UHGV virus genome: UHGV-1353844
Direction: 5' to 3' (one strand)
Source: a virus
Length of the DNA: 64,000 nucleotides
This document shows positions 44 to 44,958 of the stretch, piece by piece (the stretch's first letter is position 1; every line of letters starts with the position of its first letter). Position numbers and translations under genes: made by a program. The notes beneath the pieces are model-generated. The model ran no database searches and was not told the DNA's origin. It was given only the letters and a program-made list of their open reading frames with translations.

Positions 44-2731
44 ATGAAAGCCCGTTATTTAGAAGACGCTTTGAAACCTTACGTCTCGTATACCGAAGGG
101 GGTGAAGCACAATTACGTGGCTTGTCTTCCGAGGACGTGAAGAAACTCGCAGAAGGGTTTGGTGTAAACTTAGAAGAACGTGGTGAGATGTTAGCATTTA
201 CTGCGTTTATGCTACAACGTTTCGCACCGATTTATCTCCGCTGGATTTCAGCACTGAAGTCGATGGACAACGATATCGCTTTAGCAGATGTCGGTGATCC
301 GAAGAAAGTGTCGAAAGCGGATATGATTACCCTCTACAACAAAATGAAGATGGGTAAAGATTCTGCGGAATTCCGTTCGTTGACTGACCCGCGTAAAGTT
401 AACCAGGGTTGGTTCTCTAAAGCGTGGGATTTCGTTACCTTTACTCCGGCAGAGTTCTTGTCAGGGGAAGAGGTTGTCGAAGCACAGGAACGTGCGTGGC
501 GGTCAATCAACATGCGTACTGACGACAAACGGAAACAACGTTCGGGTATGCGTGATGCCGTCGAAGGCCACAAGGTTGCGTCTGTTGCTGAAACCAGTCA
601 GGTACTGGCGAATGCAGACGCTGAACGTAACGAGAAAGTTGCAAAAGTTGAAGGTTGGGAAGACGGAACTGAACAGGTTCAAATCCAAGTTGACTGGCAT
701 TCGTTACCGAAGAAAAGCGATTTGGAAGACCTGGAATCGGTCAGGTGGAAAACCTACGGTGCGGTTACTATCAACCAAACAACGCGTAATCTTTTCACGC
801 TGTTAGAGAAGAACGTGTTGAAAGACATTGATGTGAAGAACTGTACCTATAAAGGCAACTGGAAAGAAGCCATTGCGGTTATCTCGCCTGACCTGATAGG
901 TGGCCCTAAAGAGGAGCGTTGTAAGAACTGGTTCTATAACCGTTTCTTACCGGCGTATATGACCTACGTCGTTGGTCTGAAACGTTACATTCCGCAAGCA
1001 GACCCTACCGAATTGAAAGTATCCGGTGGGTTCATGTACGAATTAGCGTTGATGATTCGTGGCGCTTACAACATGAAGGGCGGTATTCGTCAGTCCGTGT
1101 GGGAGATTCCATTCAACCCGCTGGGCGAGGAAGCAAACACCGACGCAGGTTCTGTTGCTACTGAACTTGCCAACCTGAAAGAACTGTCCAAAGAACCTGA
1201 CCTGGCTGTTCGTGATACCCTGCGGTCTACACCCGCAGCGGGTAAACGCGCGAAGTGGCAGAAAGCCGATCGTGCGACGAGAATGTATCAAACCGACGAA
1301 GACGCCAAAGATCGCTTTAAAGGTGTCGTTGATTGGGGTACGGCGTCTAACGATGGGTACTTGCCAAACGGTGGGTCGTCTTACGGTACACCGGGTGATC
1401 TGTCTCAAGTTGTCGGTGAGATGGGTATTAGCAATTACGCGAAGTTCTCTACGGGCCAATCCGGGATTAAACTCGGGGACGTCAAAGAAGGTGATTACAA
1501 AACCTTGGCTGAGAAGTATCCAATCAGCAAACTGGGTGATGGTAAATCACCTAACGTAGAAGGCGTTAAAGCGATGATTGCGGATGTCGCAAATACCTTA
1601 GGTGTTCCGCCTGCGGTCGCGATTGCGATGGCGAAAGCCGAATCTGATTTCAAATACGGTGTCAAGAACCCAGGTGCATCAGCAGCAGGGTTGTTCCAGT
1701 TCATTGACAAAACGTGGTCTGGAATGATGAAAGGGTATTCTCGTCGGTACGGTATACCGCAAGTAAACCAGTATGACCCGTGGGCAAATACCATCCTCGG
1801 GGTACAGTTTATTCGTGACAATATCATGCAGGCGCAGAAAGACCTGGGTGGTGTAGAACCGCCTCCGGCTGTTGCGTATCTGTATCACTTCTTGGGTCCA
1901 GGCGGTGGTAAGAAGTTCCTTAAAGCGTGGCGTCAGAATCCGAACATGCCAGCCGACAAAGCGGAAGGGATTACTCCTCAAATCCTTAGAGGTAATAAGG
2001 GAGTCTTCTACGAAATGCGAGGCAAACAGATTGTTCGTATTCGTACTGTTGGCGAAGTTATTAATGAACTGAACCGCCGTATGGGTGCTGTGGCGACAAA
2101 CGAAATTGCGGCTAATCCGGCTTCAACGAAAGACATGGTGAAAGGGCTAACGCCTGCGGTTGCCTCCTCTCCGGCGGTAGCAGCAGGGGCAGCTAACGAT
2201 CCATCAATTTCTGGAGCGACGGATAACTTACCCGCATCGAATGCTGCGCGTCGTGATGAAGCGTTAGCAGAGAAAGGTGCAATGGGTGCAGACAACGTCA
2301 AAGCCGCAACCAGTGGTGGCCCAGCAGTACCGTCACCTGGCGGTAGTAGTGCAGGCGGTGACGCCTCTACGATTGCAGAGACTGTTGCAACTGGAGCCAG
2401 AAATGAAGGGTTGCCTGAAGAAGATGTCGAGAAGGTGAAAGAAGGTGCTGTGCAGCGCGCAGCAGCGACGAGTAAACCGGCACCTGCGGTTACTTCTGAT
2501 GCACAAAACGGACCTACACTTAGCAGTGGCGATCCGATTAGTGTTCAGCAGTTGGCTGTTGCAAAAGAATCGGCGGGCTATCTCAAAGAGATTGTCACGA
2601 TCCTTAAACAACGACCACAGCCGGTACAAAGCACCGCATCGACTCAACCTATGGCACCAGCAGGTTCAGCATCACGACAAATGTCCGTTGAACAGCCAGC
2701 ACGACAGCTTAACGTTAGACGTGTAGGTTAA
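44..2731 (+). CDS. Large protein (895 aa in track) with internal lytic transglycosylase (SLT-like) domain and Ala/Pro/Ser/Gly-rich C-terminus; candidate virion-associated peptidoglycan hydrolase. Frame is open to the window edge, so the 5' end may be truncated
   Basis: SLT-type motifs in order: AESDF (catalytic Glu-Ser), AAGLFQF (GLMQ-like), AYLYHFLGPGGG (AYNxG-like). No in-frame stop between position 2 and the ATG at 44. Confidence 0.6.
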   Translation: MKARYLEDALKPYVSYTEGGEAQLRGLSSEDVKKLAEGFGVNLEERGEMLAFTAFMLQRFAPIYLRWISALKSMDNDIALADVGDPKKVSKADMITLYNKMKMGKDSAEFRSLTDPRKVNQGWFSKAWDFVTFTPAEFLSGEEVVEAQERAWRSINMRTDDKRKQRSGMRDAVEGHKVASVAETSQVLANADAERNEKVAKVEGWEDGTEQVQIQVDWHSLPKKSDLEDLESVRWKTYGAVTINQTTRNLFTLLEKNVLKDIDVKNCTYKGNWKEAIAVISPDLIGGPKEERCKNWFYNRFLPAYMTYVVGLKRYIPQADPTELKVSGGFMYELALMIRGAYNMKGGIRQSVWEIPFNPLGEEANTDAGSVATELANLKELSKEPDLAVRDTLRSTPAAGKRAKWQKADRATRMYQTDEDAKDRFKGVVDWGTASNDGYLPNGGSSYGTPGDLSQVVGEMGISNYAKFSTGQSGIKLGDVKEGDYKTLAEKYPISKLGDGKSPNVEGVKAMIADVANTLGVPPAVAIAMAKAESDFKYGVKNPGASAAGLFQFIDKTWSGMMKGYSRRYGIPQVNQYDPWANTILGVQFIRDNIMQAQKDLGGVEPPPAVAYLYHFLGPGGGKKFLKAWRQNPNMPADKAEGITPQILRGNKGVFYEMRGKQIVRIRTVGEVINELNRRMGAVATNEIAANPASTKDMVKGLTPAVASSPAVAAGAANDPSISGATDNLPASNAARRDEALAEKGAMGADNVKAATSGGPAVPSPGGSSAGGDASTIAETVATGARNEGLPEEDVEKVKEGAVQRAAATSKPAPAVTSDAQNGPTLSSGDPISVQQLAVAKESAGYLKEIVTILKQRPQPVQSTASTQPMAPAGSASRQMSVEQPARQLNVRRVG

Positions 2732-5613: not shown

Positions 5614-6444
5614 TTATTTCGCCAGGTCTGCTTCTTTTACAAAGATGCCGTCGGCGTTCAGGTAACCTTTACGGTCTTTGATTTCGTGCCAGGCTAGAGA
5701 GAAACAATGACGAATGTCAAGACGATAGTAGAGAGCCAGTTTTGCAAGGCGGTACAAAGCCCAGTTAAGCTGGTCGAACCCAGCATCGGAGCGAATAAAT
5801 GCGGTAGCGAAGATTTCGGTAGCGTGGAGATACAAATGATGTGGATACCCGTTGTCATCAAAATGTTCTTCAACGTCAGCGACATCATCTACCTGCAATT
5901 GTAAACCGTGCTCGATGATTTCAGCGGTTGTCATTTCTCCAGACAGTTTGTCTTTACCCAGTTCCAGGATGTTTACCAGAACCACTAACGCATCACCGAT
6001 CCCATCCATGATCAGTTCAGGTTTGTTTTTACTGATACCTGTTGCGATTTCACCAAACTCTTCAAAGAATTTCGTGATTTGAGTTTCCAGTTTACCGTTA
6101 TCGAGGATGCCGCGTTCTTTAGACCAGCCTTTAACATGTTCTGCACAGTTCGCAATAGAATAGACCGGAACCGACACGGTGTGCATCACAGTACCGTTAT
6201 AAACGGCGTCGGTAAGTTTAATCGGTGCTTCAATCGTTTCGATGTCCAGTTCTTGAGTGCCGGTATGACGTTTACCTTCTACACGAATACGGTTGGTGCC
6301 AGGGTTTACACCGATTGTGTAAATGGCGTCGAACTGAATTGCCTTCTCATTCAGAGCACGCAGTTGTGCGTTAACTTCTTCCAGGTGCTGACCAGGATTA
6401 ACTACGATGTTGTAAATAGCGTTGATGTCAAAACGTTCGCCCAT
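5614..6444 (-). CDS. MazG-like nucleoside triphosphate pyrophosphohydrolase (276 aa) with N-terminal extension containing a short internal repeat (IYNIVVNPG / IYTIGVNPG)
   Basis: MazG-type motifs FFEEFGEIA (EExxE-like) and ELIMDGIGDALVVLVNILELG; C-terminal LAWHEIKDRKG. Motif-level call only. Confidence 0.45.
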   Translation of the reverse strand: MGERFDINAIYNIVVNPGQHLEEVNAQLRALNEKAIQFDAIYTIGVNPGTNRIRVEGKRHTGTQELDIETIEAPIKLTDAVYNGTVMHTVSVPVYSIANCAEHVKGWSKERGILDNGKLETQITKFFEEFGEIATGISKNKPELIMDGIGDALVVLVNILELGKDKLSGEMTTAEIIEHGLQLQVDDVADVEEHFDDNGYPHHLYLHATEIFATAFIRSDAGFDQLNWALYRLAKLALYYRLDIRHCFSLAWHEIKDRKGYLNADGIFVKEADLAK

Positions 6445-13997: not shown

Positions 13998-14546
13998 TTA
14001 AACAGGTCGGTTTAAAAGGTAATGTTCGATGAGTACCTCCATTTCACGAAACAAATGTGCACAGTGATTTACCAATGCCCGATCTTCATCGGTCTTGGGC
14101 TTTAAGAAAATATCTTCGTAAGGTTCGATAAGCTCGAGTAACTGCGTTAGCTTATAATAGGCAACCGCCGGATTGGACGTCCCAAAATAAGTGTCTAACC
14201 AGCGGTTTTCTGATGAGTCTTTTTGTTTACTTAACGACTCTGGCAGCGATAACCACTCGATAGAGGTGCCGTTAATCGTGCGTTGGTATTCGTTGATATA
14301 AAAAGCAAGACGTTGGTAAAGAATATCGAGATTAGCGATGCGTAACTCGAGATTACCACGTAAGCTGGGGTGGTAGGGTTCAGTATCTACGTTTATAGGC
14401 AACGTAAGCAGCCGTAAGCCGCTAAACGTTCTCACGTAGGGGTTATGGATGTTCTTATGAAACTCCTGCCTTAGAGACTCTCTGAGAGCCTGTAAACGCT
14501 TTTGCTGTAGACGTTTCTTAAAACGTGTTATTAATCCCGTAAACAT
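13998..14546 (-). CDS. Hypothetical protein (182 aa)
   Basis: ORF. Confidence 0.5.
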   Translation of the reverse strand: MFTGLITRFKKRLQQKRLQALRESLRQEFHKNIHNPYVRTFSGLRLLTLPINVDTEPYHPSLRGNLELRIANLDILYQRLAFYINEYQRTINGTSIEWLSLPESLSKQKDSSENRWLDTYFGTSNPAVAYYKLTQLLELIEPYEDIFLKPKTDEDRALVNHCAHLFREMEVLIEHYLLNRPV

Positions 14547-14618
14547 AATTCACTCCGAAAGAATGTCTCACGTAAATAATATCTGTCTGACTTCTTTTTG
14601 AAAATGAGGTGGTTTTAA

Positions 14619-23142: not shown

Positions 23143-23179
23143 GGTGATTAACTCCGAGGGTTCTACACCTGAATAATAT

Positions 23180-26183: not shown

Positions 26184-26639
26184 TCAGTTCAAACACGTTG
26201 TCAGATACTGATCGTAGGCGTCTAACAAAGCTTGCCGGTCAGAGCGATAATTCCACAGCAACGAATTCAGTTTACGTGACAAATCCAGACTGATTTCTTG
26301 TGGCGTTAACGCTTTATCGTCTAAAAACATCTTTTCTGGAACGGAATGTAATTTAGGAATTTCAAACCGTTCGCAGATAGGTGCTAACATCGGTGGATTC
26401 CACCCGCGTTTGACTGCTTGCTGATTTAAGTTTCGTGTGTAGAGATAAACGTAATAAGCGTATGTATTCACATCCGCAACATATTCCCGCATCGCGTCTT
26501 TATCAATTTTCCAATTTAGCATGATAGGCGGCGCTGGCGGAGGTTGTAATGCAGTATAGGATGACCGTTTACCGGGTTCTCCATAGCCATTACTCACCAA
26601 ACCCACGCACAAAATCATGATGAATAACAGCGATTTCAT
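26184..26639 (-). CDS. Secreted hypothetical protein (151 aa) with signal peptide and Pro-rich segment
   Basis: N-terminus MKSLLFIMILCVGLVSNGYG; QPPPAPP. Confidence 0.45.
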   Translation of the reverse strand: MKSLLFIMILCVGLVSNGYGEPGKRSSYTALQPPPAPPIMLNWKIDKDAMREYVADVNTYAYYVYLYTRNLNQQAVKRGWNPPMLAPICERFEIPKLHSVPEKMFLDDKALTPQEISLDLSRKLNSLLWNYRSDRQALLDAYDQYLTTCLN

Positions 26640-30822: not shown

Positions 30823-31302
30823 TTAGAAAAGTGGGAGGTTACGCCATTGACCTACGGAATAGAAAGCTTTCGGGTGCTTACGAATATAGTCTTTCGCTTC
30901 TTCCGGTAACCAGCGCTCACCCGCACGTTTCTGCTGAGCAACAATAACAGCCAGCAACAAATAAGGATTCTTTGACCCAGGGAATTTTGCATTCGTTTCT
31001 AGCGCAATATCCAACATCGATTCCCAGCCCAGTGTTTTAGACTGAGCGGGTAAACGGTCTTCGATATACATCAGCCAATTCATGATTTCTCTGGGTTTAA
31101 ATGGACAGGTGTAGTTCGCCCAGCTTATCATGCAAAACTTAATAATCTTTGCAAACACCCACAGCGGTATAGCCACGAATACGCAGAAAATCACCATTTG
31201 TTTCGTAGGGACGTTTACGAACGTCACTAACAGTAGAACGGTGACTACCTCTAATACCACGAACCAAAAGCGGGTTGGGTAACGCCAGATAAACTTCAAC
31301 AT
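30823..31302 (-). CDS. Membrane protein (159 aa) with about 2-3 N-terminal TM helices; possible holin-like or other membrane function
   Basis: FWFVVLEVVTVLLLVTFV and IFCVFVAIPLWVFAKII hydrophobic segments. Confidence 0.45.
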   Translation of the reverse strand: MLKFIWRYPTRFWFVVLEVVTVLLLVTFVNVPTKQMVIFCVFVAIPLWVFAKIIKFCMISWANYTCPFKPREIMNWLMYIEDRLPAQSKTLGWESMLDIALETNAKFPGSKNPYLLLAVIVAQQKRAGERWLPEEAKDYIRKHPKAFYSVGQWRNLPLF

Positions 31303-31365: not shown

Positions 31366-31875
31366 TTAAAAGAACGGCTGGTTTGGAATCACGGCAAATT
31401 CCAGAACGAAGATGTGTTCAGGGGCATCTGCCTGACGCCAGATTTTGTGCGTAGTCGCCAGTTTCTCCAGAATCGTCAGGAAGCTACGCTGGCAGTAGGT
31501 GTTCTCACCCAACAGCAGATTCTGTAACTCTACAGTGGCTTCCATATACGCTTCTTTAAAGACCTGGTTTGGATTGTATTTACCGGTGTAGTGCCACAAC
31601 AGAACTTTCCCTTGCTCCGTGTCTTTCACACTCGGACGTAATCCGCAAATCCACAACAAGGCAAGGTTGACGTTCCAGTCAAACTCTAAACCTTCTTCTT
31701 CGTCATCACCGAAAGCCGTTTTAAGGGCATCGTAAAACTCATGACGCGTTGCAAAGTCTTCGTCGGACTTTATCTGGTCTTCGCTACTGCTACGAACGAT
31801 GCTATATACGTCCTGGGCAGTAAGTTGGGTAGCCTTAGTGATACCTTTATACCAATCGGTTACAACGATGCTCAA
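31366..31875 (-). CDS. Hypothetical protein (169 aa)
   Basis: ORF; ATGA overlap with upstream gene. Confidence 0.5.
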   Translation of the reverse strand: MSIVVTDWYKGITKATQLTAQDVYSIVRSSSEDQIKSDEDFATRHEFYDALKTAFGDDEEEGLEFDWNVNLALLWICGLRPSVKDTEQGKVLLWHYTGKYNPNQVFKEAYMEATVELQNLLLGENTYCQRSFLTILEKLATTHKIWRQADAPEHIFVLEFAVIPNQPFF

Positions 31876-32585
31876 AGGGTGACTCCTTGTTTAAATGGAA
31901 AACTGGTGTTTATCGTATCCCAAATTCGGTTAACTTCCGCTAACTGAATCTGGCGTTCTGGTTTCTTCGCAAACGCAAGCTGACGAGATGCTACAGGCTT
32001 GTCGATTTTCGCACTGTAGAACGTTGCATCTTTCATAAAGCTCGCCATTTCTCGTTGTGCTGCCCGAGACTTGCTTTTAATCCTGGCGTGTGCACCACTT
32101 TCACCCCAGTGATAAGCCAATGCAATTTCTGCAATAGTGGGCTTGCGTTTGAGTCGTTTAGTCAACCCCTTTTCTAAATGTTTAACGTAGACGGAAGCCA
32201 ATAGCACCGCATTACGAGGATTGTACAAATCCGCATTGCGACTAAGTCCGATTTCGGCACCGTAGAGTTTTAGCAAATTGCGCTTTGTGCTCGGTAGCAT
32301 CTGAACCAGACTGTGCGCTTTAGACGTTCGATTATACGCCTTCGGATTAAACCGTGACTCTCGATAGATTAGCGTGGTCATCAAATTAGGATCGACACCC
32401 TGCTTTCGAGAGATTTCCACAATCAACGGTTTTACCCGTTCGAAACGGTCTTGAATCATTTCGAATTCACGATGGTGTTTGGCATTGGGCGCGGATTTGG
32501 ATGCGTATGCGTTAAACGCGAAAAGTGTTACCAGTAAAAGAAAGAAAATACGAAACATACTAGTTCTCCAGTTGGATTTATACAT
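31872..32585 (-). CDS. Secreted lytic transglycosylase (SLT domain) with N-terminal signal peptide (237 aa); candidate endolysin or periplasmic muralytic enzyme
   Basis: Signal peptide MFRIFFLLLVTLFAFNAYA; SLT motifs YRESRFNPKA (ES motif), SLVQML (GLMQ-like), AYHWGESG (AYNxG-like). Confidence 0.6.
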   Translation of the reverse strand: MYKSNWRTSMFRIFFLLLVTLFAFNAYASKSAPNAKHHREFEMIQDRFERVKPLIVEISRKQGVDPNLMTTLIYRESRFNPKAYNRTSKAHSLVQMLPSTKRNLLKLYGAEIGLSRNADLYNPRNAVLLASVYVKHLEKGLTKRLKRKPTIAEIALAYHWGESGAHARIKSKSRAAQREMASFMKDATFYSAKIDKPVASRQLAFAKKPERQIQLAEVNRIWDTINTSFPFKQGVTL

Positions 32586-32658: not shown

Positions 32659-33183
32659 CTATTTAAAAAGGTTTGGAATTAAAGGTTTTGCTTCTTGGTA
32701 AAGCGTATCGGGTAAATAGAAACAGTATTGTTGTCTCCTTGGTACGAGTTTCTTTTCGATAAACAAAAAGATTTGTTGACGTTCAGCTTTTGTCAACCAA
32801 CCGTTAGCCATCCCTAACGGCGGTAAAGCCACCCCACCCTCTAAGTTTTCTGCGGCATCTGCCAACGCGGTGATACCCGCGATAACATAAGAAACCTGGG
32901 ATTTCAGTTTCCAATGTGTTTTTGTTGGTAAGAGAATGCAGTTTTCCTCGGGATAAACGTACACATTCCCTATTCGTATTTCGTTAGCGAAGCAACGTTC
33001 TCGGTAGTCCTGATAAAGCTCAGGATAGCGTTCTCTGCACGCTAAAGCGATACCCCGACCCATTGCCCCTACGCAATTTATCGTAACGACCTTGAAGCGC
33101 TCAGGGGCGTTAAACAGGTCGTTGTCAATAACCGATTCTGGAAGTATCGTTAGCATAACGGTCTTACCGAGTGAGGTAAGCAT
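32659..33183 (-). CDS. Stand-alone macrodomain protein of the DarG/TARG1-type ADP-ribosyl hydrolase clade (174 aa)
   Basis: Motifs VVTINCVGAMGRGIALACRERYPELY, LPTKTHWKLKS and GVALPPLGMANGWL match recalled DarG macrodomain blocks ([50 protein letters not shown]). From memory, not a search. Confidence 0.55.
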   Translation of the reverse strand: MLTSLGKTVMLTILPESVIDNDLFNAPERFKVVTINCVGAMGRGIALACRERYPELYQDYRERCFANEIRIGNVYVYPEENCILLPTKTHWKLKSQVSYVIAGITALADAAENLEGGVALPPLGMANGWLTKAERQQIFLFIEKKLVPRRQQYCFYLPDTLYQEAKPLIPNLFK

Positions 33184-33899: not shown

Positions 33900-34343
33900 T
33901 TAGAAAGTTTTGCTGAAATCCACCCATTCTTTATCGTGAGAATAGGTTGCTTTGTAGCCACGACGAATGAAATACTCTTTCGCTTCTTTGCACTTCGTGT
34001 ACATCCCAATGGCAATTTCACCGAATGCTTCATCAGCGGCTATCGCTTTGAAGATTTCTTTCATTACCCCGCGCTGACGGTAATCAGGCAGCACGTATAA
34101 CGAACGAATTTTGAGTACCCCGTTGCGATTACGGTAACTGCAATAACCTACCGCAACATCGTCGATATAAATCAGAACAACACAGTTGCCTTCGATCAGT
34201 TGACGCACGTTTAATTTCGGTACAGCGGTTTTGATTTTCAGCATCGTTGCTTGGTGATCTAAGTAACGGTAATGGAGTGCGAGTAAATCTTTCGCTTGTT
34301 CTTCACCGATTTTAGAAAGTGCGTTCAACAAATAAATTTCCAT
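33900..34343 (-). CDS. GNAT-family N-acetyltransferase (147 aa)
   Basis: GNAT motif A region LYVLPDYRQRGVMKEIFKAI. Confidence 0.55.
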   Translation of the reverse strand: MEIYLLNALSKIGEEQAKDLLALHYRYLDHQATMLKIKTAVPKLNVRQLIEGNCVVLIYIDDVAVGYCSYRNRNGVLKIRSLYVLPDYRQRGVMKEIFKAIAADEAFGEIAIGMYTKCKEAKEYFIRRGYKATYSHDKEWVDFSKTF

Positions 34344-37434: not shown

Positions 37435-38043
37435 TTACGGCTGGTAGAGTTTGTAACCCATCTCCTGCCAGTTTTGGATATTTTTCGATTGCTCAACCCA
37501 AGCCTGGCCTGCATCTGACGCAACAACTTCCATCGTCAGTAAACAAATCAGATTGGTAACGGGAACACATTTCCCTGGTGTAACGTCATCCAAATACACC
37601 GGATACAGATATGGCGATTTGATGCTTTGGTACGGATAGGAATAATGTGTTCCTGCAACCCAACCTTCTTCCACTGGGCAGAGGTTAAAGGTACGCGTTT
37701 CTGGGATTTCCCCTTCAGAGATCCAATTTACAACGTCGGCCTTAATACGCCCGTTGTCGATGTAGTAGAACACAACACGTTGTGGGATACCTGCACCCCC
37801 GGTAGGGTCTATTGCTTCCAGCGCTTTAAACGGTGTGGTGTTCAACGTAGTACGGTTATCTAACGCGTACATTAGCTTTTCGTAAGCGGTTGGTGTTTTA
37901 CGTTCAAAATATGCTTTCAAACGCGGGTACGCTAAGAACCCTTCTACTTCTTCTTCCATCAAATCAATAAATAACGGAGAGTGTGGATTAGCTTCGTTTT
38001 GACGCATCGCTTCAATAAAACGAACCAAAGTAATTTCGTTCAT
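37435..38043 (-). CDS. Hypothetical protein (202 aa), monocistronic unit between two terminators
   Basis: ORF. Confidence 0.5.
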   Translation of the reverse strand: MNEITLVRFIEAMRQNEANPHSPLFIDLMEEEVEGFLAYPRLKAYFERKTPTAYEKLMYALDNRTTLNTTPFKALEAIDPTGGAGIPQRVVFYYIDNGRIKADVVNWISEGEIPETRTFNLCPVEEGWVAGTHYSYPYQSIKSPYLYPVYLDDVTPGKCVPVTNLICLLTMEVVASDAGQAWVEQSKNIQNWQEMGYKLYQP

Positions 38044-38070
38044 GTTTCAGTTTCCTTGGGCAAAAAAGAA

Positions 38071-38089
38071 GCCCCGTACACAGCGGGGC
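38071..38089 (-). terminator. Terminator hairpin (GCCCCG-loop-CGGGGC) with A-tract
   Basis: After end of gene at 38098; coordinates approximate. Confidence 0.5.
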
Positions 38090-38097
38090 CGGGCTAA

Positions 38098-38574
38098 TCA
38101 CAGCCCTAAGTGCGTGAGTGATAAGATAGGCTGTGAGACACCCTGGATAGTAGCGTGGGAACGATACATTTCAGCGTTGGTTGAGAATACCTCGTTAGCG
38201 ATAATGCATTCACCCGTCTCTAAAGATAGGAGATAAATGTAATCGCTCCATACGCTTTGTACCAAGACCCACTCTAAGGATGGACCACAGTCTGATGTTG
38301 CTTGCAAATAGTGGAAATAAGGACGTATCGCATCCACCGCCGCATTAAAGCGACGATGATAAATTCGAGTTAAGTCAAACGACCAAATTGTTTCCAGATC
38401 AATAGGGCGTAAAGTACGCACGGTTTTGATAATAGTTTCCTGGTCGTTGTGTCGTGCTGCATCAGCAATCAATAACAGTTTCCAAGCCACCGTTAAGTTG
38501 TGGCGAATATACTCAGGCTTAGCCGTCAGTTCGTGATGGAATTGGGCCGCTTGATAAACATTAGATAAACGCAT
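38098..38574 (-). CDS. Hypothetical protein (158 aa), monocistronic unit between two terminators
   Basis: ORF with TAAAGGAG RBS. Confidence 0.5.
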   Translation of the reverse strand: MRLSNVYQAAQFHHELTAKPEYIRHNLTVAWKLLLIADAARHNDQETIIKTVRTLRPIDLETIWSFDLTRIYHRRFNAAVDAIRPYFHYLQATSDCGPSLEWVLVQSVWSDYIYLLSLETGECIIANEVFSTNAEMYRSHATIQGVSQPILSLTHLGL

Positions 38575-38611
38575 TTTTAATTCTCCTTTAGGTAAAACAG
38601 GTCGTAAAAAG

Positions 38612-38642
38612 GACCCCGGACGAATCGGAACGAACCGGGGTC
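38612..38642 (-). terminator. Terminator hairpin (GACCCCGG-loop-CCGGGGTC) with A-tract
   Basis: After end of gene at 38654; coordinates approximate. Confidence 0.5.
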
Positions 38643-38653
38643 AAGACTACACA

Positions 38654-39043
38654 TCAGTAATCTAATTCGATAGCGCCTAGCATCTCACCGCGTTCTTCGA
38701 TGACGATAAGATGACGGTCACGTGATTTGCTTTTCGCAAGCGTTAGTACAACTGTGGGGTCACACGTTTTGGTCGTTACAGGAAGCACCTCTTTTGCTAC
38801 AGCGTCAAGTACGAAATAATAACCCGCAGGGCAGGTTGTTCCGCCGTCTGCTTTTACGAGTATATAGCGTCCATCTGCGCCAACTTCTTGGCACTCGCCT
38901 GCATCGCCTTCGCAGACTTCAAAACCCGGTGGGTTGTAGTGATAGTCTGTGTTCGTTGCCGGGGTAAGTAATAAATCGTCGATGTGTGTAGAAGCCATAA
39001 CTCCGATTGAGAAAAACGCCAACAAAGCGCAGATAAGACGCAT
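38654..39043 (-). CDS. Secreted small protein (129 aa) with signal peptide and several Cys
   Basis: MRLICALLAFFSIGVMAS signal-like N-terminus; CEGDAGECQ, CPAGYY, KTCDP. Confidence 0.5.
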   Translation of the reverse strand: MRLICALLAFFSIGVMASTHIDDLLLTPATNTDYHYNPPGFEVCEGDAGECQEVGADGRYILVKADGGTTCPAGYYFVLDAVAKEVLPVTTKTCDPTVVLTLAKSKSRDRHLIVIEERGEMLGAIELDY

Positions 39044-39053
39044 GGTTTACTCC

Positions 39054-39464
39054 TTAGATTTTAAGTTTGTCCTGAGCGACAACGATGGGTGCTCCAGAGG
39101 TGTCGATAACACCTACAGTCGGCACACCATTTTTGATTTTGAAGAACGGTTTGTTTTCGCCTGAACACAGTTGGTTGTCTTTGTATTCAATTTTCTGTGC
39201 TTTCCAAGTTTCCAGATTGAGCACCGACATAGGGCTGTCGTAGCACCAGGCACCGCCTTGCTCAACAACGAAAACATACCTGTTACCTTTGTATTCAAAC
39301 AAATTCTTTGTCTGGCAATACAGACCGTCAATTTCTGTGCAGTAGAATTCGTCGGTACTGTTGACGTATTTGATACCCGCCGGTAGTTTTACTGTTTTTG
39401 CTGCTACGTTAAGAGAGAACAGAACAGTTACAGCAACGAGTAAAGTTTTGATAAACGTTTTCAT
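39054..39464 (-). CDS. Secreted small protein (136 aa) with signal peptide and 4 Cys
   Basis: MKTFIKTLLVAVTVLFSLNVAA. Confidence 0.5.
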   Translation of the reverse strand: MKTFIKTLLVAVTVLFSLNVAAKTVKLPAGIKYVNSTDEFYCTEIDGLYCQTKNLFEYKGNRYVFVVEQGGAWCYDSPMSVLNLETWKAQKIEYKDNQLCSGENKPFFKIKNGVPTVGVIDTSGAPIVVAQDKLKI

Positions 39465-39479
39465 GACAGACTCCTTAAA

Positions 39480-39962
39480 TTAGTTAACCGCAGCTACGTA
39501 TTTCTTAACCAGATAGGCGAATTCATTAACGCCGATATCGCCAAACCAAACCAGATAACCTGGGTCGACGTTGTAATAGTAACCTACTACGACATGGGTC
39601 TGAGGGTTATAAAGCGTCGTGATGTATTCCCAACCACAAGCATTGCTTTTGCAAGCGGTAGACTCAAGCCAGACTTTGCCGTTGATTTGCACGGGAATAA
39701 CATCGCCGCCAGGACCATTCATTACACCATCTTTACCGAATAATCCGTCTAGTCCGACCGGTTTCAACGCTTTATCGATTGCGGCTTTATAAGTCGCATC
39801 GTCAGTATAGAGTGTGTTGATATCAGGACACGCTCCAGGTTGTTCAGCCCAGGCTTCCGGGTTACAGCTAAGTGCTTGTTTTACGGTAGCCGCTTCTGCG
39901 TTAAAGGTAAAGCCTGTGAACAGAATAGCCACGAAGAACATCAGGGTATGTAAACGTTTCAT
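39480..39962 (-). CDS. Secreted small protein (160 aa) with signal peptide and 4 Cys
   Basis: MKRLHTLMFFVAILFTGFTFNAEA. Confidence 0.5.
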   Translation of the reverse strand: MKRLHTLMFFVAILFTGFTFNAEAATVKQALSCNPEAWAEQPGACPDINTLYTDDATYKAAIDKALKPVGLDGLFGKDGVMNGPGGDVIPVQINGKVWLESTACKSNACGWEYITTLYNPQTHVVVGYYYNVDPGYLVWFGDIGVNEFAYLVKKYVAAVN

Positions 39963-39980
39963 TGTAAATTCTCCATTAAA

Positions 39981-40373
39981 TTATTCAGCGCTACGATTTA
40001 AAGTAATACGGCCAATCAGTTCTGCATTATGGAAGAAGTCCACAGCAGTATAGTTTCCGACCTCTAACGGATGAATACTGACCGACATGACTTTTGGTTG
40101 TTCGCAGGCGATATCCGTCAGACGTTGGTAGACTTGTGCACGGGTGTCGGCAATGAGTAATCCGGTACACGTTTCACCGCGTACTAAGCGATAAACTTGC
40201 AGTTTACCGAAACTGCGCATTAACGTAGGTGACTCGTCCGGGTTGATAATGGGTGAGTCAGGAGCCGGTTCGTAATGGCGGACGTCCGAATCGCCGAAAG
40301 CATAAGTGCCAGTAATACCGATTGCACAGAAAATAATGATGGTATAAAGTATAGTTCTGATATTCATTTTCAC
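39981..40373 (-). CDS. Secreted small protein (130 aa) with signal peptide
   Basis: MKMNIRTILYTIIIFCAIGITGTYA. Confidence 0.5.
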   Translation of the reverse strand: MKMNIRTILYTIIIFCAIGITGTYAFGDSDVRHYEPAPDSPIINPDESPTLMRSFGKLQVYRLVRGETCTGLLIADTRAQVYQRLTDIACEQPKVMSVSIHPLEVGNYTAVDFFHNAELIGRITLNRSAE

Positions 40374-40395
40374 GCACTCTAAAAAAGATTATTAG

Positions 40396-40857
40396 TTATT
40401 TGTTAGGACGGGTGTGTCCACAGTTCTGGAAGAAAGTTTCAGATAAACGATCGCCTTCTACGGTAAAGTTAGCGGCATCGTTACCATTGATACTCACACT
40501 GAAAGTTTTGGCATTACCGATAGCATTAACGAAAGCAACCCAAGCGAGTTCTGCTTTGTCACTACCGTCCACGGTAGGGATGTTATAGGTTTTGCCGTTT
40601 ACGACAATATCCATCGTGTTATCTTCAGCGTTAGTTGCACCTACGGGTTCCCCGTAATACCAAACCATCCGACCGTAAAATTTGCGATTCGCAGTTTCAG
40701 TGTCACAGTTGATAGACAGTCCGTTTCCGGCGGTGTCTTCGATTTCGTAAACTACCTGGCCAGGGTTTTGTATTTGTTCCCAGCTATTGATAGCGGCGTG
40801 TGCGCTATTGAGGCCGAAAGTTAAAATGGTTATTAAGAATGTGGTAAAGGTTTTCAT
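40396..40857 (-). CDS. Secreted small protein (153 aa from ATG at 40857; track start 40899)
   Basis: MKTFTTFLITILTFGLNSAHA signal-like N-terminus; AGGAG RBS 7 nt upstream. Confidence 0.5.
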   Translation of the reverse strand: MKTFTTFLITILTFGLNSAHAAINSWEQIQNPGQVVYEIEDTAGNGLSINCDTETANRKFYGRMVWYYGEPVGATNAEDNTMDIVVNGKTYNIPTVDGSDKAELAWVAFVNAIGNAKTFSVSINGNDAANFTVEGDRLSETFFQNCGHTRPNK

Positions 40858-40903
40858 TGAAATGCTCCTTCGGGTTATGGGGAAGTTCCCACAAAACATG
40901 AAA

Positions 40904-41275
40904 TTAAATAACTGTGTTGGGGAATGCTTTAATCTGCGTATAGCTATCTCCGATACCTCTTATCATCTCCAGACGTTCTTCTGTAGAAAGGCTTTGGTTA
41001 ATGTCTTTGTCAAGATTGAACAGTGTCAAGAGTTTTGCAATTGCAACCGTCAGGTTGTCGGACAGCTGGTTGTTTTTACGCCATTCTTCGTTACGGAAAA
41101 TAGAGATAAGGTCTTTCACCTGGCCTTCAGCGTGTGGTTTGGCTAACTGCGCGTCACGCTGTTCGATAAGGTATGCTTCGTTGGCAAGTAAACGTTTCAG
41201 GTCTTCTGGGTTAGTGGCAGCGCGAGTAACGATCAGTAATACAACAAACGGGTCTTTGAACAATTCGCTTTTCAT
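40904..41275 (-). CDS. Hypothetical cytoplasmic protein (123 aa), first gene of the secreted-protein operon
   Basis: ORF with TTTTAGGAG RBS. Confidence 0.5.
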   Translation of the reverse strand: MKSELFKDPFVVLLIVTRAATNPEDLKRLLANEAYLIEQRDAQLAKPHAEGQVKDLISIFRNEEWRKNNQLSDNLTVAIAKLLTLFNLDKDINQSLSTEERLEMIRGIGDSYTQIKAFPNTVI

Positions 41276-41377
41276 CGTTAATACTCCTAAAATGGTTTTA
41301 GTTAAGTGAGAGCTTTTGTACTCTCACCTAAGTAATATATATCTGAGATTATTTTTAATGTTAGAGAACAAAAAAAA

Positions 41378-41397
41378 GGTGGGGTTTACACCCCACC
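41378..41397 (-). terminator. Terminator hairpin (GGTGGGGT-TTACA-CCCCACC) after an A8 tract
   Basis: After end of gene at 41402; coordinates approximate. Confidence 0.55.
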
Positions 41398-41401
41398 GTT
41401 G

Positions 41402-41980
41402 TTAAACGTCGAATCGATACTGACGAGAATTGATTAAGAATTCTGTATTCAGTTCGATCCATTCGAGCAGGTCACCCAATTGTAAACGGCTTGGGTTTTC
41501 TATCTCGATAGTGGCAACCGGATAAGAGTTTACTAATTCCGTAATTGCCTCGATACCTTCTTGCGTTCCATCGTCTTCTAAGGTAATTATAAACGGCATA
41601 TCGGTACGCTCTGCGTTCGGGTTATACAGACTGACTTTCGTTGCCTGTACAAACGCCGAGTAATCGTCACGTATGATCCTAACGTCAGGCGATAACGTTA
41701 CCCAGAGGTGTTGTCCCGGTTGGAGTTTACGTTTTGCGTAGTTTAAGAACGGATTAGCCGGTAAGTTTTCCAAACCACTGCAAATGTTCCGTAAATGAAT
41801 TCCTCGCGGATCTTTATAGTCCACAGTGAAAATTCCTACCGGCTCACGGTCTGCCTGTTTTACCAGAAAGGCCAATACCGTGTCCGCTCTCTCTGGTAAG
41901 GAAAGCTCTATTCCCTCAAGCTCCCCATCGACGAGGTTTTCCAACCAAACGTCTTTTCTCATTTCTATTAATCGGTACAC
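41402..41980 (-). CDS. Hypothetical protein (192 aa)
   Basis: ORF. Confidence 0.5.
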   Translation of the reverse strand: MYRLIEMRKDVWLENLVDGELEGIELSLPERADTVLAFLVKQADREPVGIFTVDYKDPRGIHLRNICSGLENLPANPFLNYAKRKLQPGQHLWVTLSPDVRIIRDDYSAFVQATKVSLYNPNAERTDMPFIITLEDDGTQEGIEAITELVNSYPVATIEIENPSRLQLGDLLEWIELNTEFLINSRQYRFDV

Positions 41981-41992
41981 GGTACCACCTCT

Positions 41993-42766
41993 TTAGTTAT
42001 TGAGATTTACATCTGCGATAAACAGCAATTGTTTGCCGTGCTGCTGTACTTCTTTCCAACCTAACTTCATAGCAGTATCAACAACATCAACCATGCTGTA
42101 ACGGGACATCAAAGATTCTGATTTTGTTCCTGACATTAAGTAAAGTGGCTCATTAGGGCTACGGTCACGTGCGTCAGGAAGTTCACGTACGACTGCCGAG
42201 CCTTCGGGTGCGGTAACAACATGAATCACGGTAAATGGCCTCTTGTGCGTTAAATAGATACGAAATCCAACGTGTTCAGATTCATGAAAGATTTTCTTCA
42301 CAATCACATCTTTCAGTGTTGTTTGAACATCAGCCCCAGGCGATATCATAGACTTGCTGGAAACGAAGCAACGACTATTTTCAATCGTGGAGAAATAATT
42401 ACGTATCGGCAAACTGGCGTTATGATCGCGCAGTTTTTTGCTCAGTAGATCGAAGTTCAGTTCTTTAACTTTTTCTAACCACTCTTTGGCCTGTTGAATG
42501 TAATAACTACCAACAGCGCGATAAGTTAATACTTTACCTGTGCTCACTTTCCAAAGCTTGATGGTTAGTGAGTTTGGCTTATAGCGACGATACTCACCCC
42601 GCGTATGGTTGATGCGCTCGTAGCGCTCTACATCGTTAATCGGTGCAGATTCGACCGATTGTAATTGCAACGTTCGATCTAGTCTATCGGCAAATAGTAG
42701 CGACGTTAGCGGGCCTTCGATCATATACGGTTCGGTTTTAAAGATATCGTCTAAATGGACTTTCAT
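41993..42766 (-). CDS. Hypothetical protein (257 aa); member of a family with conserved C-terminal GWKxV...GxQLLFxAD motif
   Basis: C-terminus KLGWKEVQQHGKQLLFIADVNLNN. Confidence 0.5.
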   Translation of the reverse strand: MKVHLDDIFKTEPYMIEGPLTSLLFADRLDRTLQLQSVESAPINDVERYERINHTRGEYRRYKPNSLTIKLWKVSTGKVLTYRAVGSYYIQQAKEWLEKVKELNFDLLSKKLRDHNASLPIRNYFSTIENSRCFVSSKSMISPGADVQTTLKDVIVKKIFHESEHVGFRIYLTHKRPFTVIHVVTAPEGSAVVRELPDARDRSPNEPLYLMSGTKSESLMSRYSMVDVVDTAMKLGWKEVQQHGKQLLFIADVNLNN

Positions 42767-44905: not shown

Positions 44906-44958
44906 ATTCACTTAAGTAAAATATATCTGAATTCATTTCCGATCTAAGGAACGACCTA

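Follow-up and report, generated by a model that had tools for sequence, protein, structure and literature searches.

Very few phage proteins with a periplasmic site of action are well understood, among them T4 Imm, T4 Spackle and T5 Llp, and our search of the literature on phiKZ-related jumbo phages found no described periplasm-acting phage protein. Spackle, a periplasmic protein made early by T4, inhibits the tail lysozyme gp5 and causes superinfection exclusion (PMC7677548). Among bacterial periplasmic proteins, those of the Ivy family inhibit C-type lysozyme and, in vitro, also lytic transglycosylases (PMC10139938; PMC10746161). Here, we examine a minus-strand operon in a 64,000-nucleotide stretch of the virus genome UHGV-1353844 (hereafter, the window), which comes from a jumbo phage related to Salmonella phage SPN3US, Erwinia phage Asesino and phiEaH2. 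The operon comprises six genes, P6 to P1 (Table 1), and the reading that we favour, tentatively and short of calling it probable, is that it is transcribed early and sends five small disulfide-bonded proteins, P5 to P1, across the inner membrane into the periplasm, where P3 would lead a periplasmic protection of the cell wall resulting in superinfection exclusion. P3 itself is, as judged from profile searches, a divergent Ivy-family protein and a candidate periplasmic inhibitor of lysozyme or lytic transglycosylases.

The first-pass annotation of this DNA described a terminator-bounded operon in which the last five genes encode secreted, cysteine-containing proteins, and this description stands: six close-packed minus-strand open reading frames (ORFs) and both hairpins are present, and each of the last five genes starts with a signal-peptide-like sequence. 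Our heuristic, which looks for a positively charged n-region, a hydrophobic core and small residues at positions −3/−1, passed seven of the 69 non-overlapping ORFs of the window, five of them being P1–P5 in succession; by permutation, a run of at least five such ORFs has a probability of ~1.7e-4. P6 fails the same heuristic. The predicted mature parts of P1–P5 always contain an even number of cysteines (four in three of the proteins and two in the other two), and P6 contains none. By the heuristic, the signal peptide of P3 is MKRLHTLMFFVAILFTGFTFNAEA, cleaved before A at an AxA-type site and preceded by an n-region with a charge of +2, and that of P5 is MKTFTTFLITILTFGLNSAHA, also cleaved before A. 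The hydrophobic stretch of P4 is ~19 residues long and could be an uncleaved membrane anchor; the SPN3US orthologue of P4 carries a lipobox, LAAC. The N-terminal signals are kept in the orthologues from the clade and in the copies found in Escherichia coli genomic islands (see below), and we infer that P1–P5 are exported across the inner membrane. One could argue instead that the N-termini arose by chance or serve as anchors of virion proteins or proteins facing the cytoplasm, and that the clustering has no envelope function, given that the hydrophobic stretch of P4 has the length of a transmembrane anchor and that the export calls come from a simple heuristic. However, this explanation would have to account for the uninterrupted run of five signal-like ORFs, for even cysteine counts that appear only in the predicted mature parts, for the conservation of the signals in phages and islands alike and for the presence of known periplasmic proteins in the P3 family, and we give it very little credence. 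Elsewhere in the window, a 151-amino-acid protein (26184-26639, minus strand) also has a signal-peptide-like N-terminus and two cysteines, and the family scan returned no match for it.

The suggestion, made in the same annotation, that lysozyme-inhibitor folds be looked for proved fruitful. Two independently curated Ivy models match P3, although below their cut-offs (see below). An exhaustive search of 1.84 billion proteins with a profile of the P3 family yielded 58 matches at E ≤ 1e-3. In an alignment of 32 sequences, composed of P3, two close homologues and 29 remote matches, the Pfam Ivy model recognizes 27, and the ten strongest remote matches (E 9e-22 to 3e-9) all exceed the Pfam gathering score, with 22-38 bits. 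Direct comparison of the P3 family with E. coli Ivy using hhalign gave E 4.6e-4 at a probability of 33% over 81 columns, with the cysteine loops in register. In a profile search of the PDB with P3, Ivy chains were two of only three matches, again in register (E 1.2); the match of P3 to a beta-1,4-mannanase (E 0.002-0.018) was local and was judged to be compositional. The loop is CKPHDC in Ivy, CKSNAC in P3, CKAHAC in the island paralogues and CE(A/P)HNC in remote relatives, and its cysteines are invariant in the alignment that bridges P3 and Ivy. P3 has an additional N-terminal cysteine pair, C33 and C45. No P3 homologues were found among 50,697 phage records, and a homologue of E. coli Ivy was detected in only one of the same catalogued phage genomes, that of Escherichia phage PHB10; phage-borne Ivy genes thus appear to be rare. 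The PHB10 gene (MK524177.1, 14591-14950), which is annotated as encoding a hypothetical protein, specifies a product 38% identical to E. coli Ivy (E 8e-23). The possibility that P3 is a highly diverged form of SPN3US gp181 or Asesino gp202, the proteins that occupy its slot in the relatives, was rejected, as hhalign aligned the signal peptides only.

In phiKZ-type phages, early genes are transcribed by a virion-carried RNA polymerase. Directly after the upstream terminator of the operon, the sequence AAAAATAATCTCAGATATATATTACTTAGGTG matches the published phiKZ-type early-promoter consensus sequences, namely, TATATTAC of phiKZ, BTATATTACDWHDGTG of 201phi2-1 and TTTCARRYAKATATTATYWAAGTG of OBP/N1M2 (PMC7058600 Table 2), with TATATTACTTAGGTG being an exact match to the TATATTACDWHDGTG core of the 201phi2-1 consensus. 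The sequence ATATTAYNNNNGTG occurs three times without mismatches in the window, always upstream of minus-strand genes, and at a fourth site with one mismatch. Besides the copy at the operon, the extended motif is present at three further sites, upstream of minus-strand genes starting at 14546, 23142 and 44572. The short motif pattern is modestly enriched in the window (12 found versus 6.8 expected, one mismatch allowed), and a sigma-70 promoter scan of the region found no enrichment (10 versus 12.9 expected). Furthermore, the motif directly precedes the homologous arrays of two relatives: in SPN3US it occupies the gp179-gp180 gap (positions 5803-5816 of the extracted locus, L002), and in Asesino it is found upstream of gp200-204 (L001, 4143-4156). 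Judging by the consensus match, the recurrence of the motif and its intergenic position upstream of operons, the operon has a predicted phiKZ-type early promoter and, because of this motif, probably belongs to the early class.

Two proteins encoded in the window offer possible targets for an inhibitor of this kind, each containing an SLT domain (Table 1). For the first, of 895 amino acids, the homologues in SPN3US-type phages (~59% identity) bear the annotation tail fibre protein or lytic transglycosylase. The second, of 237 amino acids, is a candidate endolysin whose hydrophobic N-terminus passes the heuristic and would serve for export, as a signal peptide or as a signal of the signal-anchor-release type; its position is homologous to that of the 'putative endolysin' of Asesino and SPN3US. 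Under our favoured reading, the disulfide-constrained loop of P3 would bind, in the manner of Ivy, the active-site cleft of a lysozyme or of an SLT-type lytic transglycosylase. Being made at the start of infection, P3 would protect the infected cell from the tail enzymes of later phages, shielding the peptidoglycan from tail-borne lytic transglycosylases, and the outcome would be superinfection exclusion together with resistance to lysis from without, analogous to the action of T4 Spackle on gp5. For P1, P2, P4 and P5, we assume other targets in the envelope or in the incoming phage, reached from the same compartment. Superinfection exclusion, which was among the roles listed in the first-pass annotation, is one that the early-promoter motif fits, as does envelope protection in general; the inhibitor activity of P3, its target and the exclusion phenotype itself are what we infer by analogy with the described inhibitors.

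The main rival to early protection is control of the phage's own exported endolysin. According to this explanation, P3 above all would act as a brake on lysis, restraining the Sec-exported SLT endolysin or host lytic transglycosylases until the programmed time. The endolysin candidate does combine an SLT domain with an export signal, Ivy-type proteins can inhibit lytic transglycosylases, and bacteria are known to control a lytic transglycosylase through a periplasmic inhibitor/anti-inhibitor pair (PMC10746161), a precedent of interest given that P3 travels with a partner, P2. Nevertheless, an early-promoter motif is odd for a late function, unless the protein is stockpiled; endolysins similar to the candidate are present in the Salmonella and Erwinia relatives, which lack P3; and E. 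coli islands retain P3-P2 without a phage endolysin. We therefore judge a lysis-timing role to be unlikely.

Several observations weigh against early, P3-led protection of the cell wall. P3 scores only 15.2 bits (E 0.025) against the Pfam Ivy model (PF08816), below the gathering cut-off of 21, and 19.8 bits (E 5.4e-4) against the NCBIfam Ivy model PRK09993, for which the threshold is 180; matches to Pfam Ivy at E ≤ 1 were obtained for eight of the 11 P3-family members, the best at 0.0077 and all below threshold. In the loops of P3 and P0011, Asn occupies the position where most aligned relatives have His, a residue which in Ivy we take to contact the active site of lysozyme. Because the curated threshold is not reached and the loop His is replaced, we regard P3 as Ivy-related by homology and not as a verified Ivy-type inhibitor. 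The Ivy fold, an antiparallel sheet flanked by helices, is likewise putative for P3, because the AlphaFold2 model of P3, built from 11 close homologues, has a predicted local distance difference test score (pLDDT) of 44. E. coli Ivy itself is a weak inhibitor of lytic transglycosylases in vitro and had no effect on lytic transglycosylase overexpression in vivo (PMC10139938). P3 is missing from the Salmonella and Erwinia relatives, and therefore a function of the array common to the clade cannot rest on it; for the conserved proteins P1, P2 and P4, the searches returned no functional assignment. None of P1–P5 matched the PADLOC defence models, and the early timing of the operon is deduced from a motif.

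Some of these points can be accommodated by assuming that P3 has lost the Ivy function and that none of the five proteins inhibits a hydrolase, all of them acting in receptor masking, in blocking DNA entry or as chaperones. Apart from the His-to-Asn replacement in the P3 loop, such an assumption gains from the annotation of E. coli Ivy as a periplasmic chaperone as well, from the lack of resemblance of P1, P2, P4 and P5 to known inhibitors and from the weak likeness of the P1 model to propeller blades, which are typical protein-binding modules. However, neither the cysteine loop and its length nor the strands on either side vary within the P3 family, which argues that the loop is still under selection, and the close island paralogues keep the His (CKAHAC). 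We consider a set of five non-inhibitors improbable.

P3 and P2 are also common in E. coli chromosomes, and the closest relatives of P3 outside the phage lineage are chromosomal. In a blastn search, the region matched 2461 of 5426 complete E. coli genomes (~45%); full-length matches are confined to the P3-P2 cassette (Table 1), and nearly all matches listed share its 3' end. For instance, in the island of NZ_CP031833, a CP4-type element adjoining tRNA-Ser, P3-P2 follows a block of GTPase, dynamin, RdcB and patatin genes and precedes a DUF932/antirestriction/RadC/DUF987/YeeU-CbtA backbone. The island counterpart of P3 is 96% identical at the protein level and that of P2 (WP_000846713) 76%, and the two genes are separated by the same 15-nucleotide spacer. 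At the nucleotide level, identity to this island is 94.2% for P3, 93% for the P3-P2 spacer and 79% for P2, with 10/10 positions of the P2-P1 spacer matching; the identity along P2 is mosaic, ranging from 62 to 95% in 60-nucleotide windows. It falls to the background within ~25 nucleotides of the P1 start codon, so that the island retains the P1 ribosome-binding site and a stub of P1. The G + C content at third codon positions (GC3) of P3 and P2 equals that of the neighbouring phage genes. Because of the retained P1 stub with its ribosome-binding site and the match in GC3, the island cassette would be a fragment of a phage-type P3-P2-P1 array that subsequently underwent diversification and further recombination. 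The sharing of P3-P2, with its sharp boundaries, between a lytic jumbo phage and chromosomal islands makes for a clear case of recent gene flow. Since P3-P2 is present in E. coli islands, the module does not belong to phages alone, and the earlier description must be amended in this respect. In NZ_CP031833 (extracted locus L006, 8806-9483), the island P3 is annotated as a 225-amino-acid ORF with a 65-residue N-terminal extension, which has a signal-like peptide of its own (beginning MKLPVKLLMSLISLVSVIARA) and continues in frame into the P3-type signal peptide; the extension may be a fused remnant of a small exported gene or the result of a mis-called start.

The islands carrying P3-P2 are rich in defence-type cargo, an association which we count in favour of a protective function, and in CP4-type islands the pair might serve the same role for the bacterium as we propose for the infected cell. 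The island setting also raises the alternative that the enzymes being countered are not those of phages, but animal lysozymes or peptidoglycan toxins of rival bacteria, the phage having borrowed an island trait. Indeed, Ivy owes its discovery to the inhibition of vertebrate lysozyme, E. coli of animal and human origin widely carries the P3 family, and tandem small exported genes in an island setting could be likened to arrays of orphan immunity genes. This scenario is at odds with the inclusion of a P1 stub within the island boundary and with a GC3 equal to that of the phage neighbours, both of which point to a phage-type source, as well as with the conservation of P1, P2 and P4 in lytic jumbo phages whose hosts include both plant-associated and enteric bacteria and with the lack of a family match to PliC/MliC-type inhibitors or any known immunity protein; we find it rather unlikely. 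By extending the favoured reading, P3-P2 could be regarded as a previously unrecognized two-gene periplasmic anti-phage or exclusion cassette, derived from a jumbo-phage early operon, captured by CP4-type islands, present in ~45% of E. coli and neutralizing tail-borne lytic transglycosylases, with P1, P2 and P4 also belonging to what would be a new class of periplasmic proteins that inhibit the machinery of incoming phages. It is unlikely that this extension would hold in full.

Comparison with the related phages indicates that the array is a mosaic, in which lineage-specific additions are combined with a core, P4, P2 and P1, that appears to be conserved in the clade. The survey of synteny was small and covered four loci obtained from a single-protein scan. 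P1 corresponds to Asesino gp204 and SPN3US gp183, P2 to gp203 and gp182, and P4 to gp201 and gp180, respectively, and the gene order and flanks of the array are identical in SPN3US and Asesino. P4 is 50% identical to SPN3US gp180 (E 2e-45) and 45% identical to Asesino gp201, and P2 is 34-36% identical to SPN3US gp182 and Asesino gp203 (E 1e-16). The respective PHROG matches are phrog_5248 for P1 (E 1e-30), phrog_8968 for P2 (E 1e-37) and phrog_9424 for P4 (E 6e-42). The third gene of the relatives, gp202/gp181, encodes a paralogue of the P2/P1 types (E 4e-9 to 4e-4). The unrelated P3 takes this slot in the E. coli lineage, where P5 has also been added at the front of the array.

The first-pass annotation considered the five proteins not obviously similar to each other. 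Within the window this is borne out, pairwise comparison of P1–P5 having given nothing significant (z ≤ 2.6 against shuffles), but P1 and P2 are linked as paralogues through the proteins of the relatives. Because of the cross-links between Asesino gp203 and P1 (E 5e-5), gp202 and gp203 (E 4e-9) and SPN3US gp181 and gp183 (E 4e-4), and because four cysteines align across these proteins, three of them in invariant columns, we assign P1, P2 and gp181/gp202 to one four-cysteine family, with P1 and P2 as distant paralogues. P4 is a possible member of this family: it shows a weak match to phrog_5248 (E 0.0035), and visual inspection allows its two cysteines to be matched to Cys3 and Cys4 of P1. Clear membership was not supported, with an hhalign probability of at most 7% that involved the signal region only and with unsupportive shuffle statistics. 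The P1/P2 family is beta-rich, and in a fold search the structure model of P1 gave only weak, generic matches to beta-propeller blades. Neither P1, P2, P4 nor P5 matched any Pfam or NCBIfam family at E ≤ 1, including the PliC/MliC, PliI and PliG inhibitors, and no relatives with solved structures were found for these four proteins. The proposal of a dedicated envelope-remodelling module finds no backing in P1, P2, P4 and P5, which yield no recognizable function or informative fold. Searches of the literature on SPN3US gp180-183, YfjT and jumbo-phage periplasmic exclusion returned nothing on these genes.

Table 1. Features of the P6–P1 operon and of other parts of the window discussed in the text; aa, amino acids; nt, nucleotides.
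Feature	Position	Strand	Description
P6	40904-41275	-	123 aa; no signal peptide, no Cys; insertion, probably outside the exported set
P5	40396-40857	-	153 aa; predicted to be exported; 2 Cys; YfjT-family protein
P4	39981-40373	-	130 aa from GTG; predicted to be exported or membrane-anchored; 2 mature Cys; conserved core
P3	39480-39962	-	160 aa; predicted to be exported; 4 Cys; divergent Ivy-family protein; loop C104-K-S-N-A-C109
P2	39054-39464	-	136 aa; predicted to be exported; 4 Cys; four-cysteine family common to P1
P1	38654-39043	-	129 aa; predicted to be exported; 4 Cys; four-cysteine family; conserved core
P3-P2 cassette	39021-39969	-	949 bp; P3, P2 and first ~20 nt of P1; homology to DNA of CP4-type islands
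Upstream terminator	41378-41397	-	GGTGGGGT-GTAA-ACCCCACC, then T8; 5' boundary of the operon
phiKZ-type early-promoter motif	41325-41356	-	AAAAATAATCTCAGATATATATTACTTAGGTG; directly after the upstream terminator
Leader hairpin	41306-41327	-	GTGAGAG-TACAAAAG-CTCTCAC; overlaps 3' end of the promoter motif and start of the leader
Downstream terminator-like hairpin	38612-38642	-	GACCCCGG, 15-nt loop, CCGGGGTC, then CTTTTT; 3' boundary of the operon
Recurring motif AAAAA...TCAGATAKATATTAYTTAnGTG	14569-14582, 23166-23179, 41325-41338, 44909-44922	all -	intergenic gaps
SLT-domain endolysin candidate	31872-32585	-	237 aa; PF01464, E 3.3e-14; possible target
SLT-domain protein	44-2731	+	895 aa; PF01464, E 2e-8, residues 515-600; probably tail-associated; possible target class

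In a BLASTP comparison, P5 is 23% identical to E. coli K-12 YfjT over 133 amino acids (E 2e-14), and homologues of P5 at 74-96% identity carry precomputed matches to PF27224 (YfjT), which identifies P5 as a YfjT-family protein; our local copy of Pfam, which may lack PF27224, gave no match to P5. P5 is absent from the array position in SPN3US, Asesino and phiEaH2. A relationship between P2 and K-12 YfjS was also considered and dismissed, no similarity having been found. P6 is encoded by an insertion of ~440 nucleotides between the conserved promoter leader and P5 and is absent from the close relatives examined, namely, the sister phage and the loci L003, L009 and L010. It matches phrog_27024, and its homologues (27-34% identity) are found elsewhere in SPN3US-type genomes, ~50 kb away; a weak, partial match to AbiA in PADLOC was disregarded. 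P6 is probably a cytoplasmic protein, specific to the phage of the window and likely outside the exported set; thus, of the six-gene operon originally delineated, P5–P1 are of the exported type, but P6 is an insertion that the close relatives examined lack.

The intergenic gaps from P6 to P1 are 46, 22, 18, 15 and 10 nucleotides. The P5 ORF extends to 40899, and we place the true start at the ATG at 40857, because a ribosome-binding site, GAAGGAG, precedes that codon. P4 may start at an alternative ATG at 40367, which would give 128 amino acids. The hairpin upstream of the operon, a strong terminator, ranked first in the terminator scan; it ends the upstream gene (192 amino acids, 41402-41980) and is conserved in the sister phage. 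The downstream hairpin, for which the terminator scan gave a shorter form (38631-38613), is the weaker of the two because of its large loop. In the region of the leader hairpin, the sequence of the sister phage diverges right after GGTGAGAGT.

The operon is of phage origin. The SMC-like protein of 840 amino acids encoded beside it is 69% identical to Asesino gp207 and its phiEaH2 counterpart and 58% identical to SPN3US gp186, and because of these identities we assign the window to an undescribed jumbo phage of the phiKZ-related SPN3US/phiEaH2/Asesino clade. A megablast of the window against the 50,697 catalogued phage genomes found no close match. The G + C content of the window is ~45%, and no tRNA genes were found in it. 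NZ_CP173450.1 ('plasmid p98232-contig_4'), a circular RefSeq entry of 221,873 bp that comes from a urine isolate of E. coli, is ~96% identical at the nucleotide level over positions 38001-42000 and keeps the phage gene order across this part of the window; other close relatives (~96%) are contigs of 107-225 kb in public assemblies. As these relatives occur in the record of an E. coli isolate and in public assemblies, E. coli is the likely host. Although labelled a plasmid, NZ_CP173450.1 looks like the genome of a jumbo phage, which may have been present in a carrier state or as a contaminant. The window also encodes a GNAT acetyltransferase (33900-34343, minus strand) and a Macro-domain-like protein (32659-33183, minus strand; E 6e-4, below threshold), both located between the SMC-like gene and the endolysin candidate. 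The small ORFs that follow the endolysin candidate (31366-31875 and 30823-31302) had no match in the family scan.

The PHROG, Pfam or island families of these genes were already known, as was the concept of periplasmic exclusion and hydrolase inhibition. What is new is the phage-borne relative of Ivy behind an early-promoter motif, the mosaic composition of the array and the sharply bounded cassette found in ~45% of E. coli. If the operon is indeed an early module for envelope protection, it would make superinfection exclusion and lysis from without genetically accessible in jumbo phages that are under development for therapy. A phage-borne branch of Ivy, possibly aimed at lytic transglycosylases, would bear on the debated natural role of Ivy, and a testable function would be at hand for two genes that nearly half of the sequenced E. 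coli genomes carry together, as well as for the YfjT family.

Among the described systems, T4 Spackle (gp61.3) offers a functional parallel. Like Spackle, P3 is a small phage-encoded protein with a signal peptide, predicted in the case of P3, and the role proposed for it, inhibition of a tail-associated peptidoglycan-cleaving enzyme, is the one that Spackle performs. In addition, Spackle is an early gene product, and the window operon has an early-promoter motif. However, the target of Spackle is a T4-type lysozyme, whereas the candidate target here is an SLT-type lytic transglycosylase; and Spackle is a single protein, whereas here there are five. None of P1–P6 matched the Spackle family in Pfam or PHROG. 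A parallel in sequence is Ivy (E. coli b0220, PDB 1GPQ/1XS0), which, like P3 as predicted, is small and Sec-exported and to which P3 is linked by profile searches. Both proteins have a six-residue disulfide loop, C-K-x-x-x-C, between two beta-strands with the same conserved flanks; for P3, a low-confidence model predicts the order helices, two strands, loop, two strands, helix. They differ in the loop, where the His of CKPHDC is replaced by the Asn of CKSNAC, and in the C33/C45 pair, which is absent in E. coli Ivy. Furthermore, the Ivy gene is chromosomal and Rcs-regulated, whereas that of P3 resides in genomic islands and in a lytic jumbo phage, where an early-promoter motif precedes it.

In terms of gene content, the nearest equivalents are the arrays of SPN3US (gp180-gp183), Asesino (gp201-gp204) and phiEaH2, represented by PHROGs 9424, 8968 and 5248, which share with the window array the position, between the 192-amino-acid gene and the genes adjoining the SMC-like gene, the gene order and the promoter motif. 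Unlike SPN3US and Asesino, in which the third gene encodes a four-cysteine paralogue, the window array has the unrelated, Ivy-like P3 at that place, and P5 and P6 are additions with respect to all three phages. P2 of the window is 76% identical to the E. coli island allele and only ~35% identical to its orthologues in the phages. The other points of comparison are the yfjS-yfjT genes of CP4-57 and CP4-6 (and ykfB/yafY), with P5 belonging, by similarity, to the YfjT family, although at only 23% identity to the K-12 protein, and with P3 and P2 having counterparts in CP4-type islands. The CP4-type island genes and P2, P3 and P5 all encode small, apparently exported proteins, the island copies lying in the variable part of these elements. 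Unlike in the CP4 islands, however, the genes in the phage form what appears to be a single operon, which includes the clade-specific P4 and P1 and is preceded by a phage early-promoter motif.

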